A DNA stretch of 64,000 bases from a virus (taxonomy: Duplodnaviria > Caudoviricetes), in IMG/VR virus record IMGVR_UViG_3300028186_000155. The stretch is one strand, 5' to 3'. The position numbers were made by a program, and so were the translations under genes. Under the pieces are notes generated by a model. It ran no database searches. It was not told the DNA's origin and saw only the letters and a program-made list of their open reading frames with translations. Below, piece by piece: positions 2,988 to 47,952 of this stretch; the stretch's first letter is position 1; every line of letters begins with the position of its first letter.

Positions 2988-3390
2988 CTTTAGAAATACC
3001 TTTCAAGCGGAACACTGCACGACTGCCGTCAGGTTTGGTGCAGACTGTGCGATATGGGTTTTCCTGATCCGCATAGCTAACGTTGCGGAAACCTTCCTGA
3101 ATCCAGCCTTTTTCAAGGCACAGGCGCTGGGCCTCGAAACGTTCGGCCCAAAGCACACGCCGCTCGTAACGATCTTTACCGTTTACTGGTGGTGGAATAT
3201 CGTGCAGGATGAAATTTTCTTCCTCGATACGTTCGCGCTCTTCACGCTTGGCTTTAACCACAGCATCGCGGATTGCAGCGCTCTCGGCACTCTCTGCTTT
3301 TTCCTTGGCCTTCACGCCCTTATCTTGATAGGGATATTTGCCGTCACAACCAGCCAGCAAAACCAGTGCAAACACCACCAAATATTTCAT
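2980..3390 (-). CDS. lipoprotein paralog 3
   Basis: MKYLVVFALVLLAGC lipobox; AQRLC...YRTVC. Confidence 0.8.
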   Translation of the reverse strand: MKYLVVFALVLLAGCDGKYPYQDKGVKAKEKAESAESAAIRDAVVKAKREERERIEEENFILHDIPPPVNGKDRYERRVLWAERFEAQRLCLEKGWIQEGFRNVSYADQENPYRTVCTKPDGSRAVFRLKGISKDE

Positions 3391-3647
3391 TGCTGGCCAT
3401 TCCTTTTCAGGTAGATAACGGTGCCATCTTTCTGGCGACAAACGGCGCGGTAGCTTTCTGGCCCGCCGCTGCGCAGGTAGTTGCTGGTTTCGAACAGCAT
3501 GCCCATACGCTGGCAGATGCCTTGGGCTTCCCATTTCGCATCCCAATTCAGGCGCGTTTCTTTGGATTTATCAACGCCTCGCGAAGGTCGATCAAGGGCA
3601 TCGCAGCCAGTCAGCAACAGTGCGGCAACCACCATCAAATATTTCAT
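3387..3647 (-). CDS. lipoprotein paralog 2
   Basis: MKYLMVVAALLLTGC lipobox; AQGIC...YRAVC. Confidence 0.8.
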   Translation of the reverse strand: MKYLMVVAALLLTGCDALDRPSRGVDKSKETRLNWDAKWEAQGICQRMGMLFETSNYLRSGGPESYRAVCRQKDGTVIYLKRNGQQ

Positions 3648-3955
3648 TCTGCCACCTCGAATTGTTCCACCGGCTGATTTTCAAGCATACAGGTGGCGCG
3701 GGGTTTCATGTCGTCAACGCCCGGCACCAAACCGATGTAAACCATGTCACGATCAGCGCAAATTTTCTGTGCCTTCAGCGTGCGTTCAAACTGGCCCTTG
3801 CGGTATTCTTGACGCTCCGCCACATAGCGTTGGGCTGCTGCAATTCGGTCGGCGCGTTTTTGGTCACGATCTACCATGCTTTGATATTCTTTTTCAGCGC
3901 CCGAATCACAACCAACCAGAACCAGTGCGGCCATCACGGCCATCAGAATTTTCAT
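3644..3955 (-). CDS. lipoprotein paralog 1
   Basis: MKILMAVMAALVLVGC lipobox; AQKIC...RATC. Confidence 0.8.
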   Translation of the reverse strand: MKILMAVMAALVLVGCDSGAEKEYQSMVDRDQKRADRIAAAQRYVAERQEYRKGQFERTLKAQKICADRDMVYIGLVPGVDDMKPRATCMLENQPVEQFEVAE

Positions 3956-11508: not shown

Positions 11509-12057
11509 TTAATATTTATCAGCGAAAAATTCAATCTTCGCCCTGTGTTTTTCAAACAGTTCTTGATCAGTAGTCCATACCAGATCAGTGTTGGTAAAGA
11601 CGTGCGTTTTCTCGCAAACGAACTGGCACTGCCGCACATTGCCAATGGCCGCCGAGTGCGCCCAGCGCATAACCATCATCAGCCGCGTAAGATTCACCAG
11701 CGGCGACGTGTAGGCCACGTGGTACACGTTCGCATTCTGGCGCGGGATATGGTTGTACAGGATAGACAGGCTGGTGCCCTCTACCCAAAACAAATTCGTT
11801 GGCTGTTCGAGGAAATATTTCTGCGGAAGCCAGCCCTGCTTCTTAACCAGAATTTTCTTTCTGATGCTGTGAATAAATTCCAGCAGGTTTTGATCTTGGC
11901 GAAAGGCAGCGCCTTCCACTAAATGCTTTAGACGGGCCAGTGTCCCGTCCATAGCTGCGCGTGCATCCCGAATGGCAATCCACTGTTCTTTTGATACGCG
12001 TGGTCGCTTTTCGGGGCTTACTTGCTGCGCTTGTGAACCTTGATTCACCTGTTCCAT
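11509..12057 (-). CDS. hypothetical protein
   Basis: AAGGA SD; tiles operon. Confidence 0.75.
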   Translation of the reverse strand: MEQVNQGSQAQQVSPEKRPRVSKEQWIAIRDARAAMDGTLARLKHLVEGAAFRQDQNLLEFIHSIRKKILVKKQGWLPQKYFLEQPTNLFWVEGTSLSILYNHIPRQNANVYHVAYTSPLVNLTRLMMVMRWAHSAAIGNVRQCQFVCEKTHVFTNTDLVWTTDQELFEKHRAKIEFFADKY

Positions 12058-12075
12058 TTAGGCTTTCCTTGTACC

Positions 12076-12453
12076 CTAGATTTTTCGCCCAATTGTCGTT
12101 GGGTCTTCGGAATCGCTGATGTATTGATAGCCGCCCTTGTTGTACAGGGGCGCAGTGCGTTTCTTTTTGCGTTCGATTTCTTCCTGTGCCGCCTGTTCAC
12201 GTGCAGCCCAGTCTTCACCCTCGACCAGAAAAACGCCTTCCTCGGTCACGGTCAGTTTTTTCGCACTCGGCAAATGTCCAACGTCCGACGTGCGATATTC
12301 GAGTTTAAGGGACGATCCATCGTCCACTTTCTTTGCAGCTTTTGGCAAAGAACCATCGGCATTACGGCCCAGCTGTTTTGCCAGCTTTGCACGGGCCGCC
12401 GCTTCCTGTTGTTCTTTGCGCTTGCGTTCTTGTTGCTGCTTTTTGGTCAGCAT
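12076..12453 (-). CDS. basic phage protein with APLYNKGGYQY motif
   Basis: GGAG SD; motif type recalled from myovirus hypotheticals. Confidence 0.75.
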   Translation of the reverse strand: MLTKKQQQERKRKEQQEAAARAKLAKQLGRNADGSLPKAAKKVDDGSSLKLEYRTSDVGHLPSAKKLTVTEEGVFLVEGEDWAAREQAAQEEIERKKKRTAPLYNKGGYQYISDSEDPTTIGRKI

Positions 12454-13039: not shown

Positions 13040-13771
13040 TCATTTAGGTTGCTCCCCTGTTTGCTCCAAAGCAAAATCTTTGGTGCGAGTAAATTGGTGT
13101 GACCTTGGTGAATTGAAATCGGTGCAGCTGAAATGCTCTGTGTCTTTGGCCCACGTGTTGAACTTCGAATAAAATCCATAACCGAGGGTGACTGGCTTTT
13201 GTTTGTGCGGCACCCGCCCCAGCAGCATATCTACCGAGAACGTTTCACCCATCGGCCACTCTTTAGCCATTTGACGAACCGCGTCCTGCAATTGCTGTTG
13301 CGTCATGCGGCGCAGTGCCAGTGGATCACGTGGCTTTTTGTTGGCGCGTCCCTTGGGCAGCGGCGCTTCTACGTCGCTAATGCGCTGGAACAGGTTGCCA
13401 TTTTGTGCCGGGATTATGCGGAACTCTTCGTGACGGCGAACCCACTGCGCGAACACAGAATGCCAGTAGCCGGGCACCTTCAGTGAACTGAATTGGTTAC
13501 GGCTATGCAGGCGAATCACAAGGTCATACAGGCTAAACATCATGCCCATTTTTATTGTGCGGGCCACCGGGACCAGTTCAGTCCATTCGAGGCTATCCAG
13601 CGGCACGGCCTGTTTTTCATACAGGTCTTCAGTGGTCGCCAAATGTTGCTCAAGAATTTTGCTAATCGCCTGTTCGACCGTTTCGCCTGTGCGCTCGCAA
13701 TGATCGGCCAGCGCACGGTGCAGGTCTTCACCAATATCCAGCTTCAACAAAACTTTTTTATCTTGTTCCAT
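13040..13771 (-). CDS. RHH DNA-binding protein with two repeated C-terminal domains
   Basis: LKLDIGEDLHRALADHCERTGETVEQAISKIL; two G..FS...L...F..W repeats. Confidence 0.7.
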   Translation of the reverse strand: MEQDKKVLLKLDIGEDLHRALADHCERTGETVEQAISKILEQHLATTEDLYEKQAVPLDSLEWTELVPVARTIKMGMMFSLYDLVIRLHSRNQFSSLKVPGYWHSVFAQWVRRHEEFRIIPAQNGNLFQRISDVEAPLPKGRANKKPRDPLALRRMTQQQLQDAVRQMAKEWPMGETFSVDMLLGRVPHKQKPVTLGYGFYSKFNTWAKDTEHFSCTDFNSPRSHQFTRTKDFALEQTGEQPK

Positions 13772-13857
13772 TGTTCCTCCTTAGAGGCTGCCCCACATGC
13801 CGAACAGCCGATCCATTTCGCCCAGTGCATTCCCCTGCTGCACCGGCACCGCCTGTT

Positions 13858-17446: not shown

Positions 17447-17585
17447 TTAAACCTTGCCCTTTTTCTGGTGTGCCGTCCGGGTTGAGTTTCACCCAGCGCG
17501 CTTCGATATGCGGCCACGGGTGGTATGGATTCGGTTCAACAAAGTGAACCTTTACTGCCGGAAATAAGCTGGGGAGTTTATCCAT
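17409..17585 (-). CDS. 58-aa hypothetical (not in ORF track)
   Basis: MDKLPSLFPAVKVHF...; AAGGT SD. Confidence 0.55.
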   Translation of the reverse strand: MDKLPSLFPAVKVHFVEPNPYHPWPHIEARWVKLNPDGTPEKGQGLSGEENDCTDHRI

Positions 17586-17606
17586 TTTTCATTGTACCTT
17601 TGGAGT

Positions 17607-17637: not shown

Positions 17638-18387
17638 TCAGTCACCACCGCCGCCACCGCCACCGGAATCACCGCCAGAATCGCCACCGCCGCCCCAGCC
17701 CCCGGAACGGTCGCTAGTGCTAGGCGAATCATCATGGCGCGAAGGCGTATAGGACGGCGCAGGGGCCTCATGGCGCGTTTCTGCCATAGGTTCGCGGTAT
17801 CCACGCGTTTCTGCCATAGGTTCGCGGTATCCAACCGAGGGCTGGTGCAACGCGTTGCCGGTGATTTGCTCGCGCTGTTCCGGCGTAACCTTCAGCGTGT
17901 GCGTTTCTACGCTGGCGCGCCGGTTGCCCACTGTCAGGTCGCCAGGGTAGCCCTGTGCACGCTCTAGCGCATCGTCGTAAACACCGTTGACGTTTTGCGT
18001 TACCGCAATGTGCGTTGCCATCAGAATTGCAGAATCATCTGGCGGCGTGCTTTGGATTTGACCGCTGCGGTATTGCTGGCCATAACGCGCCACCTTTTCC
18101 GCTAGGTGACGTTCCGGGTGCTGGACCGGCTGGGGCTGCTCGCGCTGCAATCGGCTCAGACGGTCCGTCACTTCGAAATATTCGCGGCGCACCGAATTGA
18201 TTTCGTTTTGCAGGCCTTCGATTTGTTTGTTCTTTGCCGCCAGTTCGCGGTTTACGCGCAGCAGTTCAGCCGCTTGTGATTCGTAGCCCAGTGCCAGCAG
18301 TTTGTAGTGCGACTGGAACTCGCGGAAACGGCGGGTGCCGAACAGCTTGTCGAACCAGTAAAAATTACGCGGTTTTTGGTGATCCAT
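17638..18387 (-). CDS. coiled-coil protein with Gly/Ser/Asp-rich tail
   Basis: GAGGA SD before MDHQK; ends GGWGGGGDSGGDSGGGGGGGD. Confidence 0.8.
   Translation of the reverse strand: MDHQKPRNFYWFDKLFGTRRFREFQSHYKLLALGYESQAAELLRVNRELAAKNKQIEGLQNEINSVRREYFEVTDRLSRLQREQPQPVQHPERHLAEKVARYGQQYRSGQIQSTPPDDSAILMATHIAVTQNVNGVYDDALERAQGYPGDLTVGNRRASVETHTLKVTPEQREQITGNALHQPSVGYREPMAETRGYREPMAETRHEAPAPSYTPSRHDDSPSTSDRSGGWGGGGDSGGDSGGGGGGGD
17774..17833. repeat. perfect 30-bp tandem duplication (GYREPMAETR x2)
   Basis: cgcgtttctgccataggttcgcggtatcca twice in a row. Confidence 0.95.
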
Positions 18388-27338: not shown

Positions 27339-27587
27339 CTAGTTATTAATCAACAGTGCAAAGCAAACAACGAACGCCACCATATTGAAGCGTTCGAATC
27401 GGGCAGTCCAACGGTCGGTATTGCGCCCTACAAAAAGCAGCGACACAACCGAAAGCAGGATTCCCAAGGTGCCGATAATGGCGTGCGCCATTTGGCTATT
27501 AAACGGAACGGCAATCCAGCACAGGCTCAGCAATCCAACGACGATGCCTGAATGGGGGCGCATAAGCAGTGCCCGCGTAGTTTTCAT
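27339..27587 (-). CDS. small membrane protein (3 TM)
   Basis: three hydrophobic segments; start 27587 or 27596. Confidence 0.7.
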   Translation of the reverse strand: MKTTRALLMRPHSGIVVGLLSLCWIAVPFNSQMAHAIIGTLGILLSVVSLLFVGRNTDRWTARFERFNMVAFVVCFALLINN

Positions 27588-27604
27588 TGTACCCATGGAA
27601 ACTT

Positions 27605-27703
27605 CCCTTAATCCGTGAGGGTGTAGGTAACAGGCAGCAAATGCCCAGCCACCAATCTGACAGACGGTCGCCCATCTGTCAACACTTGCCCACGGATCAA
27701 GGG
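27605..27703 (-). ncRNA. candidate multi-stem cis-regulatory RNA
   Basis: 15-bp outer stem, GCGA-capped 10-bp hairpin and a third stem; wobbles are G-U only on the minus strand. Confidence 0.5.
27654..27682 (-). promoter_or_regulatory. sigma70-type promoter within an inverted repeat
   Basis: TTGACA-N17-(TG.)CAGATT; TGACAGATGG-GCGA-CCGTCTGTCA inverted repeat. Confidence 0.6.
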
Positions 27704-27765: not shown

Positions 27766-28245
27766 TTAGGCCGGGTCAACCCCTGCACCGGCTTCCTTGG
27801 CGTGCTCCAGCTTGGCCGCCACCTGCGCCAGTTGAACCACGGTGTATTGCTCGGGCGACATGAGATTGGCCAACCCGGCGTCAATGGTGAACCACTCGCG
27901 CTTGCGCAATTGGAACTCTTCCCAATCGCAATAGGAAGCGAACGAAGCGCGGAAATAAATCTCGCGCTGGATCTTTGCCGGGTGATCGTCGGTTGCTTCG
28001 TAGGACAATACTTCGTCGTAAATCTTTTCACGCAGGAAAACTTCCATGCCTGCCTCTTCACGGGTTTCCTTCTGCGCGTTTTGTGCCTCGGTCAAACCTT
28101 CCTCCAAACCACCTTTGGGCAAAACCCACAGGCCGGGGAATTTCAGTGACGTGACCAGCAACACTTTATTGGTATCGTAGGAAATGACGGCAACGCCGGT
28201 AGCGGTGCGGCTATAGTTCAGGTCTTCAGATTTAACGACGTTCAT
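27766..28245 (-). CDS. Nudix hydrolase, DIPP/Ap6A-type
   Basis: WVLPKGGLEEGLTEAQNAQKETREEAGM; WEE..LRKREWF. Confidence 0.9.
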   Translation of the reverse strand: MNVVKSEDLNYSRTATGVAVISYDTNKVLLVTSLKFPGLWVLPKGGLEEGLTEAQNAQKETREEAGMEVFLREKIYDEVLSYEATDDHPAKIQREIYFRASFASYCDWEEFQLRKREWFTIDAGLANLMSPEQYTVVQLAQVAAKLEHAKEAGAGVDPA

Positions 28246-32286: not shown

Positions 32287-32507
32287 TAGCAGGTCGCTCG
32301 ATGTGATTTGATGTACGTCACTTCCTTGCAGCCGGGGCACACGTGACGATAGCGCTGGCCGATAGGAATCACCATGCCAGTTGGCGGTCGGTGGCTCTGG
32401 TGGAAGCACGGTTGTTTCTGGCTGAATTCTGGATCAGGTTCGAAGCCCGAACCGTCCCGGTTTTCCTGCATGATCATGGCGGCGATCAGATCGTTATCTT
32501 CTGTCAT
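32286..32507 (-). CDS. small Cys/His protein
   Basis: CFHQSH...HVCPGC. Confidence 0.7.
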   Translation of the reverse strand: MTEDNDLIAAMIMQENRDGSGFEPDPEFSQKQPCFHQSHRPPTGMVIPIGQRYRHVCPGCKEVTYIKSHRATC

Positions 32508-32521
32508 TTTTCATTGTTCCT

Positions 32522-46488: not shown

Positions 46489-46806
46489 TCAACCCTCTTT
46501 GCTTGGGATTGTGTTCGGGTGCTGGTTCACCGATTGAATGTTGAACCGTTCTTGCCGAATGATCGCGTCGGGGTCAAACGTCGGGTCAGGGTGTTTGATG
46601 TAGGACATAAAGCGCTCTACAGCCACCACCGGGATCGTTTCACCAAAAGGGATTTTGTCGGTGCAAACCAAAATCTTTTCGATGGTAGCTTTGCGCAATC
46701 GCGCTTCGCGGTCGTTGAACTGTTTGCGCCAGATGTAGGCGAACACCATCAGCAGGAACACGAAGCCCGGCCCTACCACGATTAGGTCTTTCTGGAACTC
46801 AGTCAT
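46489..46806 (-). CDS. single-TM protein
   Basis: TM at about aa 8-26. Confidence 0.7.
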   Translation of the reverse strand: MTEFQKDLIVVGPGFVFLLMVFAYIWRKQFNDREARLRKATIEKILVCTDKIPFGETIPVVAVERFMSYIKHPDPTFDPDAIIRQERFNIQSVNQHPNTIPSKEG

Positions 46807-46827
46807 TTTTCATTGTACCTATGTGGA

Positions 46828-46857: not shown

Positions 46858-47862
46858 TTACGCAGTGCGTTGTTTGCGGCGCATATCGGCGGCTTGTCGC
46901 TTGGAAATGCCGTCCGGGTAGCCGGGGCCTGCGACGATACGCTTATCATCGATCAGGATATTTACCGGGGTGCCCAGCAGGTCTTCCAACGCGTCTTCGC
47001 AGTGCTGCGCCGTGCGTCTATTTTCCACCAGCTTTTGCAGGAATTCACGCAGTGTCGATTCGTTCAGGTGTTCAAACTTGAACGGGGTTTCCGGTTTCTC
47101 TTCGTCTTCAATCCCTTCGGAATCAGGATCGACGGTAATGAGTGTTTCCACGCCCAATTCGGACGTGATCAGGTTTTCCAGATCCTCTTCAAGGATCATC
47201 CACGTGAAGCTGTTTTCGAGTTCTTTCAATTGCGCCTGCACCAGCTGAATGCGGCGGTATTTTTCGAAACACTCGTAAACGTATTCACGATGGTTGAGGG
47301 TAACGTCATCCTCGGCAATCATCCGCGCAATCTTGCACATCACATCAGGCCATTCCTGATCCAGCTGCATTTCGTGGCGGATGTGATCGATGCAGGCCAC
47401 CAGCGGGCCACGCAGCGTGACAGATTTGCTCGGGTTTTTATGCTCATGCAGAATTTGCACGCGCTCGCCCGTGAGTTCGAAAATCACAGCTTCGACGGTT
47501 TCGATGCGGTACGTGGTGAAGTCCTGCATCCCATAATCGCAAAGCTGCTTTTCGTTTTCCAGCCGGTCAGCAGCACGCGGTTTGTGGCCATGCTGTGTAT
47601 CACCCTCCAGCCATTCGCTGCGGAAATAGGCACCGAGCGATTCGTCGCCTTCCATCCATTTGGAAACCGACAGCATTTCGTCAATGACCGCGTGCCACGT
47701 CTGCAACTTCCAATCGTTGGTATCGAGTTCAACGCCCGGTGCTTCCAAAAGAGCGCCGCCATGCGCGGTTGCGTTGTGAACCGCAATCATGAATTTGCGC
47801 GGACCCATATCGACCAACATTTGGCCGACCAGCTTTTCCGCCAACTCTAAGCGCTTGCCCAT
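46858..47862 (-). CDS. acidic hypothetical protein (334 aa)
   Basis: TAAGGA SD before MGKRL. Confidence 0.8.
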   Translation of the reverse strand: MGKRLELAEKLVGQMLVDMGPRKFMIAVHNATAHGGALLEAPGVELDTNDWKLQTWHAVIDEMLSVSKWMEGDESLGAYFRSEWLEGDTQHGHKPRAADRLENEKQLCDYGMQDFTTYRIETVEAVIFELTGERVQILHEHKNPSKSVTLRGPLVACIDHIRHEMQLDQEWPDVMCKIARMIAEDDVTLNHREYVYECFEKYRRIQLVQAQLKELENSFTWMILEEDLENLITSELGVETLITVDPDSEGIEDEEKPETPFKFEHLNESTLREFLQKLVENRRTAQHCEDALEDLLGTPVNILIDDKRIVAGPGYPDGISKRQAADMRRKQRTA

Positions 47863-47865
47863 TCT

Positions 47866-47952
47866 CAAACTTCCTTAATTGCGTGAGTGTGAATGTAACG
47901 GCCATAGCAAAGGCCAGCCGCCACACTACCATTCGTCGGGTTGCCTTGTCAA
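47866..47952 (-). promoter_or_regulatory. sigma70-type promoter and leader homologous to 27599..27682
   Basis: TTGACA-N18-(TG.)TAGTGT, then GGCGGCTGG..TTTGC..GCC GTTAC..CTCACG..ATTAAGGAAGTTT. Confidence 0.7.

Follow-up and report, generated by a model that had tools for sequence, protein, structure and literature searches.

The endoribonuclease RegB of phage T4 cuts GGAG in the ribosome sites of early messages, and T4 RegA is a translational repressor. In the T4-type phages RB49 and phi1, an early promoter, a stem-loop and a Shine-Dalgarno sequence are joined in units termed PeSLs, for promoter-early stem-loop (Arbiol et al. 2010, PMC2839356; PMC4122927). Described here is a promoter-and-leader cassette that occurs twice (copies A and B) in a 64-kb stretch of phage DNA, hereafter the window, which belongs to the 195-kb IMG/VR virus record IMGVR_UViG_3300028186_000155 (G000; estimated completeness 63%). 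The DNA of the window is about 70% identical to that of the Pseudomonas jumbo phages HRDY3 (314 kb) and Lu11 (281 kb), and the window is part of a Lu11/HRDY3-like jumbo phage. A and B are best explained as host sigma-70 early promoters with a leader that is standard in this phage family, an explanation which, taken in full, is about as probable as not.

Like PeSLs, the cassette is a repeated intergenic unit of about 100 bp in a large virulent phage, with a strong sigma-70-type early promoter, a stem-loop and a Shine-Dalgarno sequence, and with mostly ORFan genes behind it. The PeSL stem-loop is a tested terminator of upstream transcription and is found in variable places (upstream of the promoter, between its hexamers, overlapping them, or immediately after the -10), whereas the cassette hairpin has a fixed place at the 5' end of the RNA and no U-run; the coding strand showed no terminator-like site between the upstream gene and promoter A or B. 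An AT-rich upstream element belongs to PeSLs, whereas the cassettes are GC-rich upstream of the -35 (GGGCAAGTG in A and AACCGCCTGA in B), where no AT-rich element of the PeSL kind is present. PeSLs also mediate gene shuffling, in hyperplastic regions, and the formation of mini-circles, while A and B, the two copies compared for this, keep their synteny, and the invariant box CTCAC-N8-GGAAGTT of the cassettes has no PeSL counterpart. On these differences in stem-loop position and role, AT-rich element, shuffling and fixed box, A and B were rejected as PeSLs. The likeness to the targets of T4 RegB and RegA is one of analogy, in that a short sequence at the ribosome site of many early messages may act as a common post-transcriptional mark, although the motif in the cassettes is a longer, bipartite 20-mer. 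No published description of this leader box or of the cassette family was found in the literature that could be searched.

Cassettes A and B and their family

The two copies have the same order: TTGACA, a spacer of 17 or 18 nt, TGn with a weak -10 hexamer, a small hairpin where the RNA is predicted to start, then CA-rich sequence, the box CTCAC-N8-GGAAGTT and, 3-5 nt after it, an ATG. Both are on the minus strand, as are the genes throughout the window, and the two strings given for them in an earlier note on this DNA are present there as written. The starts that the same note had predicted, 47916 and 27647, each coincide with the seventh base after the respective -10 hexamer. The parts of the two copies and the genes behind them are as follows.

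27594-27682, minus strand: copy A, whole
27677-27682, minus strand: -35 TTGACA of copy A, with a 17-nt spacer behind it
27659-27667, minus strand: AlgR-type 9-mer CCGTCTGTC of copy A (7/9 match), covering TGn, its last base being the first base of the -10 hexamer
27654-27662, minus strand: extended -10 of copy A, TGT + CAGATT (hexamer at 27659-27654), followed by GGTGGCT
27632-27647, minus strand: predicted start of copy A (27647) and 5' hairpin GGGCA-N5-UGCCU (-5.8 kcal/mol, z -0.48)
27600-27619, minus strand: leader box of copy A, CTCACGGATTAAGGGAAGTT = CTCAC-GGATTAAG-GGAAGTT, including the probable ribosome-binding site
27339-27596, minus strand: gene behind copy A, for an 85-aa hydrophobic protein, downstream of a NUDIX hydrolase gene (27766-28245)
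47860-47952, minus strand: copy B, whole
47947-47952, minus strand: -35 TTGACA of copy B, read directly, with an 18-nt spacer behind it
47929-47937, plus strand: AlgR-type 9-mer CCATTCGTC of copy B (8/9 match to CCGTTCGTC), in the spacer, abutting the -10 hexamer and covering TGn
47923-47931, minus strand: extended -10 of copy B, TGG + TAGTGT (hexamer at 47928-47923), followed by GGCGGCT
47900-47916, minus strand: predicted start of copy B (47916, placed by its spacing from the -10) and 5' hairpin GGCC-N8-GGCC (-8.1 kcal/mol, z -2.08)
47868-47887, minus strand: leader box of copy B, CTCACGCAATTAAGGAAGTT = CTCAC-GCAATTAA-GGAAGTT, including the probable ribosome-binding site
46858-47862, minus strand: gene behind copy B, for a 334-aa protein, with its ATG at 47862

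The box of copy A begins at +28 and is separated from the ATG at 27596 by TCC (3 nt); that of copy B begins at +29 and is separated from the ATG at 47862 by TGAGA (5 nt). The genes served are unrelated, as had been proposed: the 85-aa and 334-aa proteins show no relationship to each other, the larger has no Pfam or PHROG match and the smaller no family assignment. Orthologues of the 334-aa protein stand behind the same cassette in HRDY3 and in G001, a complete 308-kb relative, and the order of NUDIX gene, cassette and small open reading frame (ORF) at the A locus is identical in Lu11 and HRDY3.

Further cassettes were gathered from a DNA pattern scan of IMG/VR, in which many chance matches were removed by context, and from G001, giving about 50 distinct cassettes. 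A covariance model was trained on 36 aligned cassettes, and the counts of anatomical features given below are taken from 47 distinct cassettes. With filters off, the model returned A (69.5 bits) and B (68.8 bits) from the window and no other matches, the next best score being 6.4 bits. There were nine matches above 50 bits and three weaker ones in G001, nine strong and three weaker cassettes in HRDY3, and eight strong and two weaker in Lu11; in G000, the incomplete record from which the window comes, A, B and one further strong cassette were accompanied by three weak ones. The box by itself behaves in the same way: CTCAC-N8-GGAAGTT has nine matches in HRDY3 and four in Lu11, against none for the reversed pattern, and with the first base relaxed (TCAC-N8-GGAAGTT) both genomes hold nine, again against none for the reversed controls. 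The similarity of A and B is far beyond chance. The genome-wide covariance-model search that the earlier note had called for found further copies, contrary to the outcome (no further copies) that the note had named as a refutation, and its second copy of a cassette has grown into a conserved multi-copy family of promoter plus leader, with 8-9 strong and 2-3 degenerate copies in each complete relative. A blastn search of 50,697 phage records gave matches in HRDY3 and Lu11 only, the more distant relative PaBG lacks the cassette, and retrieval of related loci from IMG/VR with the 334-aa protein and a 269-aa downstream protein as queries found none.

In the complete genomes, six copies (five above 50 bits in G001) cluster in a block of about 20 kb of small unknown genes, B lies about 18-29 kb downstream of this early cluster, and A follows another 17.5-20 kb on. 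These two outlying members of the family are not a special pair: the identity between them, about 60%, does not exceed that of either with other paralogues, and with its own orthologues each shares 77-85%. An orthologue of A precedes the same gene in HRDY3, G001 and Lu11, one of B precedes the same gene in HRDY3, G001 and three IMG/VR contigs, with the layout unchanged, and synteny of the genes on either side held for both copies in every relative compared. When the window is aligned with HRDY3 or G001, identity is 82-88% over the cassettes, 62-68% over the initial 255 nt of the genes behind them and 65-69% over the 250 nt upstream; it is 90-100% in the leader box, with that of A at 100% in both orthologues.

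The spacer is 17 nt long in 39 cassettes and 18 nt in 8, TGn precedes the -10 in 37 of 47, and A at -11 and T at -7 are present in all 47; TTGAC is invariant or nearly so in the 36 aligned cassettes. On their sequence, A and B qualify as extended -10 (TGn) promoters, a signature of the housekeeping sigma factor, and there is strong reason to regard the cassettes as an early sigma-70 promoter class. The GenBank record of Lu11 marks two cassettes as 'similar to early promoter consensus TTGACA(N15-17)TATAAT'; the annotation spans the hexamers only, at 2 of about 8-10 Lu11 sites, and includes neither the hairpin nor the leader box.

A different motif, the 11-mer AAACTGTAAACA, is found in 10 copies on the coding strand of the window (at most one mismatch; 0.28 expected) and never near A or B.

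1113, 4004, 6884, 12509, 14030, 19342, 34914, 40376, 54306 and 57679, minus strand: copies of the 11-mer AAACTGTAAACA, upstream of genes

In the Lu11 record AAACTGTAAACA is annotated as 'putative middle/late promoter', and G001 holds 40 copies of its core, the strand of which tracks gene orientation. Both its distance from A and B and this annotation agree with the proposal that the cassettes define a second regulon, separate from the 11-mer, and this proposal holds, with the cassettes as the early class of promoters for the host polymerase. The group of PaBG and Lu11 has been described as having a phage sigma factor, and the passages of that description which deal with it mention no phage RNA polymerase subunits (PMC7412058). 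A Sigma70_r2 gene was found in all four genomes searched. A phage sigma factor fits a scheme of early promoters used by the host polymerase followed by a later class driven by the phage factor, and this later class is plausibly that of AAACTGTAAACA.

The leader: 5' hairpin and box

Nearly every cassette can form a hairpin close to the predicted start, and in 38 of 47 it begins 0-4 nt after the predicted +1 (1 nt in both A and B). The stems vary (GGGCA/TGCCC, GGCC/GGCC, CGGC/GCCG, GGAC/GTCC, CCCTGGC/GTCAGGG), although a core GGGCA...TGCCY recurs at this position in most paralogues. The mean z-score of the hairpin region is -1.8, with 26 of 38 cassettes below -1.5. In the ortholog sets of A and B, RNAalifold found no double-sided compensatory change, only one-sided changes from G-C to G-U. 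The usual role of a hairpin at the extreme 5' end of a message is protection from 5'-end-dependent decay.

The N8 spacing of the box is exact in every true cassette, and the box starts between +28 and +33 in 46 of 47. An ATG follows GGAAGTT after 3-6 nt in 38 of 47 cassettes, and no start codon stands behind the box in 7 of 47. The established 3' end of 16S rRNA is ...ACCUCCUUA-3', and the 3' half of the box, UWRRGGAAGU, is complementary to its last nine bases with one fixed A-C mismatch. Since this complementarity is combined with a start codon at the right distance, the 3' half can be regarded with good confidence as the ribosome-binding site. Such a role leaves the invariance of the box unaccounted for: the other ribosome sites of G001 vary (AGGA 80, GAGG 60, GGAG 48), and AGT comes directly after [AG]GGA in no more than 4 of 114 genes. 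Ribosome pairing accounts neither for the CTCAC half nor for the exact N8 spacing. Paralogues and diverged phages preserve the box to the letter and at exact spacing, including copies with no start codon behind it, and for this reason a trans-acting reader of the box is proposed; the chance that a dedicated one exists is put at slightly under even.

One alternative is that the leader is a cis-acting expression module only, with a strong early promoter, a stabilising hairpin and an optimised initiation region made up of an open CA-rich landing pad and a long, deliberately imperfect Shine-Dalgarno sequence, spread by duplication and kept for uniform high early expression. The complementarity to 16S rRNA and the placing of the ATG are both expected of such a module, the leaders of A and B downstream of the hairpin are not structured above shuffled sequences, which fits an open ribosome site, and searches that included Rfam (no match at E up to 1 over the whole window), RegA and RegB gave no candidate for a reader. 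A module of this kind would not account for a CTCAC half and an exact N8 that are invariant in about 50 cassettes from phages with genes only about 65% identical, while the ribosome sites of other genes in the same genome vary freely, nor for the boxes that lack a start codon, one type of which is followed by a separate ribosome site 42 nt on. It is therefore considered unlikely that the leader acts in cis only.

Several known elements were compared with the leader and set aside. Inspection of the 36 aligned cassettes showed no boxA of the lambda nut or rrn boxA-boxB type (CGCTCTTTA or TGCTCTTTAACAA), and neither the sequence nor the length of the hairpin loops is constant. Also by inspection, the A(N)GGA context of RsmA/CsrA sites is not kept and there is no regular second GGA, no ARN repeats stand in register as in the A-rich motifs of Hfq/Crc, and an RNase E site (RNWUU) in the N8 fits some copies only. 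An upstream mini-ORF in the copies without an ORF is broken in frame by indels between G000, G001 and HRDY3, and self-pairing of CUC with GGG that would hide the ribosome site amounts to 3-4 bp only.

Boxes that have no start codon next to them are conserved in three settings. In the first, a strong cassette on the other strand carries a box without an ORF (G000 168239, HRDY3 148460, G001 169393 and Lu11 117341), and a degenerate second cassette (CACTCACACTATTTCGCAAGTTTGGAGATTGACCATG) about 170 nt further on carries the ORF.

G000:C1:168067-168339 (minus strand; outside the window), HRDY3 148285-148559 and G001 169220-169492: tandem cassettes of the first setting

The intervening RNA has two strong folded domains in which both halves of the box are paired, and in the RNAs of G001 and HRDY3 the pairing partner of CGCUCAC is a GUGAGCG further downstream. 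The intervening RNA is a possible small RNA or attenuator. The second setting is the last cassette of the early cluster in HRDY3 and G001, where TTAGG-ACTTCCC-TTTTT comes directly after GGGAAGT, so that the box is hidden in a terminator-like hairpin, and where the ORF, 42 nt further on, uses a separate ribosome site of its own. A third phage has GGGAA-N6-TTCCC at the same place.

L167:22528-22640 (HRDY3 282027-282140), L169:1501-1610 (G001 301361-301470) and L090:142-260: cassettes of the second setting

Such a hairpin could be a natural sensor of a factor that binds the box. In two of the three settings the RNA folds by pairing GGGAAG(U) with a downstream (A)CUUCCC, followed by a run of U. 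Complementarity between the box and downstream sequence matters only in RNA. Because of this downstream complementarity and the constant sense orientation of the box, a role at the RNA level together with a common trans-acting reader is favoured.

The third setting consists of inverted copies of the box upstream of promoters. In G000, G001 and Lu11, a cassette-type promoter, TTGCGT-N17-TAGCAT, is bracketed by two inverted boxes.

G000:C1:150074-150177, G001:C1:151091-151193 and L193:655-765 (Lu11 134254-134364): bracketed promoter

The bracketing arms form a perfect 13-bp inverted repeat in G000, AAACTTCCCATAT...ATATGGGAAGTTT, and in Lu11 the conserved halves match while the N8 between them does not. 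A further inverted box, CACTCACGCGATTTGGGAAGTT, on the minus strand of G000 abuts the -35 of a plus-strand promoter.

G000:C1:114979-115087: TTGACA-N17-TACCTT promoter, plus strand, with the inverted box at 115006, minus strand

This last promoter has its own leader without a box, and a terminator-like hairpin stands just before it on the plus strand. About 125-135 nt upstream of the bracketed promoter are an AlgR-type sequence, CCGTTCGTC, exact in G001 and 8/9 in G000, and a palindromic promoter-like site, TTGACACAC..TGTCACA; a phage sigma-factor gene lies about 4 kb upstream.

The inverted copies bear on a second alternative, that the box works as DNA, as a bipartite operator TCAC-N8-GGAAGTT at which a phage DNA-binding protein, always at the same distance downstream of the start, would block or loop early promoters. 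The distance from promoter to box is indeed fixed, the upstream copy at the bracketed promoter cannot be a ribosome site, the agreement of the arms in Lu11 is confined to the conserved halves, an inverted box abuts the -35 of another promoter, and the early region encodes several DNA-binding proteins. It is because one promoter is bracketed by inverted boxes that this interpretation stays alive. More than 40 cassettes, however, have the box in the sense orientation without exception, within the transcript and beside the start codon, its 3' half is a near-perfect anti-16S sequence, and the boxes without an ORF are matched by complementary RNA segments downstream and by runs of U. Another reading of the bracketing arms, which in G000 are the perfect 13-bp repeat, is that read-through transcripts fold back on themselves and so conceal the ribosome site. 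Action of the box as a DNA operator is accordingly judged improbable. It is very improbable that the cassettes are PeSL-like mobile modules, serving mainly as recombination points that shuffle early genes as in T4-type phages: they are repeats of about 95 bp with 55-65% identity, in one orientation and clustered among small ORFan genes, with the early promoter, stem-loop and Shine-Dalgarno sequence that PeSLs likewise have (PMC2839356), but the genes behind A and B are the same ones in the window, HRDY3, G001 and other relatives, the stem-loop has a fixed position downstream of the start and no U-tract, an AT-rich upstream element is absent and the 20-nt box is without PeSL counterpart.

AlgR-type sites and the phage LytTR protein

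The binding consensus of AlgR in Pseudomonas aeruginosa is CCGTTCGTC, and footprinted natural sites, such as CCGTTCATC and CCGTTGGTC, vary by one base (PMC4787818). A conserved block in the spacers of some cassettes matches this 9-mer (8/9 in B, 7/9 in A and 9/9 in the HRDY3-282k type). The six B orthologues all have the block CCGACGAATGG unchanged, with a match of 8/9, but differ in the remainder of the spacer. For A, the window, HRDY3 and G001 agree throughout the block CCGTCTGTCAGATT, with a 7/9 match in all three, but not in the first half of the spacer. The exact 9-mer of the HRDY3-282k-type promoter overlaps the -35. The earlier note had stated that the spacers of A and B differ; this overlooks the AlgR-type 9-mer that both contain, in opposite orientations. 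When the published consensus was matched to core promoters from 24 ortholog groups, every member scored 7/9 or better in four multi-member groups, those of A and B among them, whereas letter-permuted AlgR motifs gave a mean of 0.56 groups and reached four in 0.4% of 1000 permutations.

Each complete genome has exactly one gene with a LytTR domain (38-47 bits), located immediately upstream of the first cassette of the early cluster.

L189:1402-1788 (G001 282313-282699), HRDY3 261046-261441 and Lu11 11615-12127: LytTR gene

The phage protein consists of a LytTR domain only (128 aa). In Lu11 its gene is annotated as 'putative response regulator receiver protein' and follows the endolysin gene, and in G001 it is found behind the middle/late motif and a gene whose Lu11 counterpart is the annotated endolysin. 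That the AlgR-type 9-mer is an operator for the phage LytTR protein or for host AlgR is a candidate role suggested by its sequence and, at present, a doubtful one.

Some further repeats were noticed in the window. A perfect 30-nt tandem duplication (CGCGTTTCTGCCATAGGTTCGCGGTATCCA twice) at 17774-17833 lies in or beside minus-strand ORFs. Two adjacent 48-nt stretches at 3344-3391 and 3601-3648, 77% identical and ending in ...CAAATATTTCATT, are on the coding strand two neighbouring gene starts (ATGAAATATTTG...) with similar N-termini, possibly of paralogous small secreted proteins or lipoproteins. Four gene starts on the coding strand (13757-13778, 17578-17599, 32500-32521 and 46799-46820) have AGGWACAATGAAAAATGA in common, which comprises a ribosome site and the first codons (MKN...) and may be a shared N-terminus or start context.

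Proposed course of early expression and its meaning

The explanation proposed for A and B begins with the host sigma-70 holoenzyme, which would recognise TTGACA, the 17- or 18-nt spacer and TGn-nAnnnT and start transcription near 27647 and 47916. Two early transcription units would in this way open inside a region otherwise served by the middle/late promoters of the 11-mer type. By analogy, the small hairpin 0-4 nt from the 5' end would then shield the message against 5'-end-dependent decay. An unstructured CA-rich stretch would lead to the 20-nt box CUCAC-N8-GGAAGUU at +28 to +33, the 3' half of which is predicted, from the known 3' end of 16S rRNA, to pair with the ribosome, with the start codon 3-6 nt downstream. 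The box would at the same time be a handle for one trans-acting reader that treats all early messages alike, most likely for the timed shut-off or the protection of these messages. The promoters of A and B may, in addition, carry operators for the phage LytTR protein or host AlgR. In its most extended form, this explanation would make the box an address label on all early messages of the lineage, read by a dedicated factor (a protein or an RNA unrelated to RegA and RegB) that switches them off or protects them together; the box RNAs without an ORF would be sensors or decoys, and some of the early promoters, A and B included, would be gated by the phage LytTR protein through AlgR-type operators that mimic a signal of the host regulon. 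This extended form is tentative, and rather less probable than the existence of a reader as such.

A number of results count against the explanation. For the promoters, a plain scan for the TTGACA/TATAAT consensus flags neither A nor B, since in each only three of the six -10 positions agree with TATAAT, and the start sites and early timing of the cassettes are deduced from their sequence. For the hairpin, the 5-bp stem of A is no better than that of shuffled sequence (z -0.48) and the 4-bp stem of B is modest (z -2.08); fixed-register covariation over 52 cassettes gave 63.6% paired positions against 60.7% in shuffles, which is not significant; and folding was equal on the sense and antisense strands (19 against 18; Wilcoxon p 0.39), so that selection on the hairpin at the RNA level is not demonstrated, and the partly conserved GGGCA...TGCCC could equally be a DNA palindrome. 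For the reader of the box, no candidate was found, and homologues of RegB (PF10715) and RegA (PF01818) are absent from G000, G001, Lu11 and HRDY3. For the operators, the AlgR 9-mer with one mismatch allowed is not enriched genome-wide over the reversed control, and it is a short motif that was spotted after looking at the data and matched to AlgR afterwards. For the phage LytTR protein, searches that took in solved structures gave at best weak similarity to AgrA, no long homologues were found for it, and no close kinship to AlgR was detected.

The earlier note took the hairpin to be kept between the two copies; both have a small one, but that of A does not exceed shuffles. The hairpin is probable but not proven, and the odds that it has a function are balanced. 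The broader proposal of a conserved early-leader RNA element or regulator site is partly supported: a leader conserved across a family is present, whereas covariation is not significant and the hairpin of A is at the level of shuffles, leaving the reading of the leader as an RNA element plausible but unproven.

The jumbo phages of the Lu11 and PaBG kind appear to depend on the RNA polymerase of their host. With each early transcription unit marked by a cassette, the early regulon could be mapped at once; most of its genes have no known function and are likely to be aimed at host takeover. As parts, the cassettes would be compact, strong and self-contained expression units for Pseudomonas. If the pairing of an AlgR-type site with a phage LytTR protein is true, early transcription of the phage would be linked to the signalling vocabulary of its host. 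The 20-base leader sequence is better conserved than the genes it serves, which points to one control step common to all early messages.

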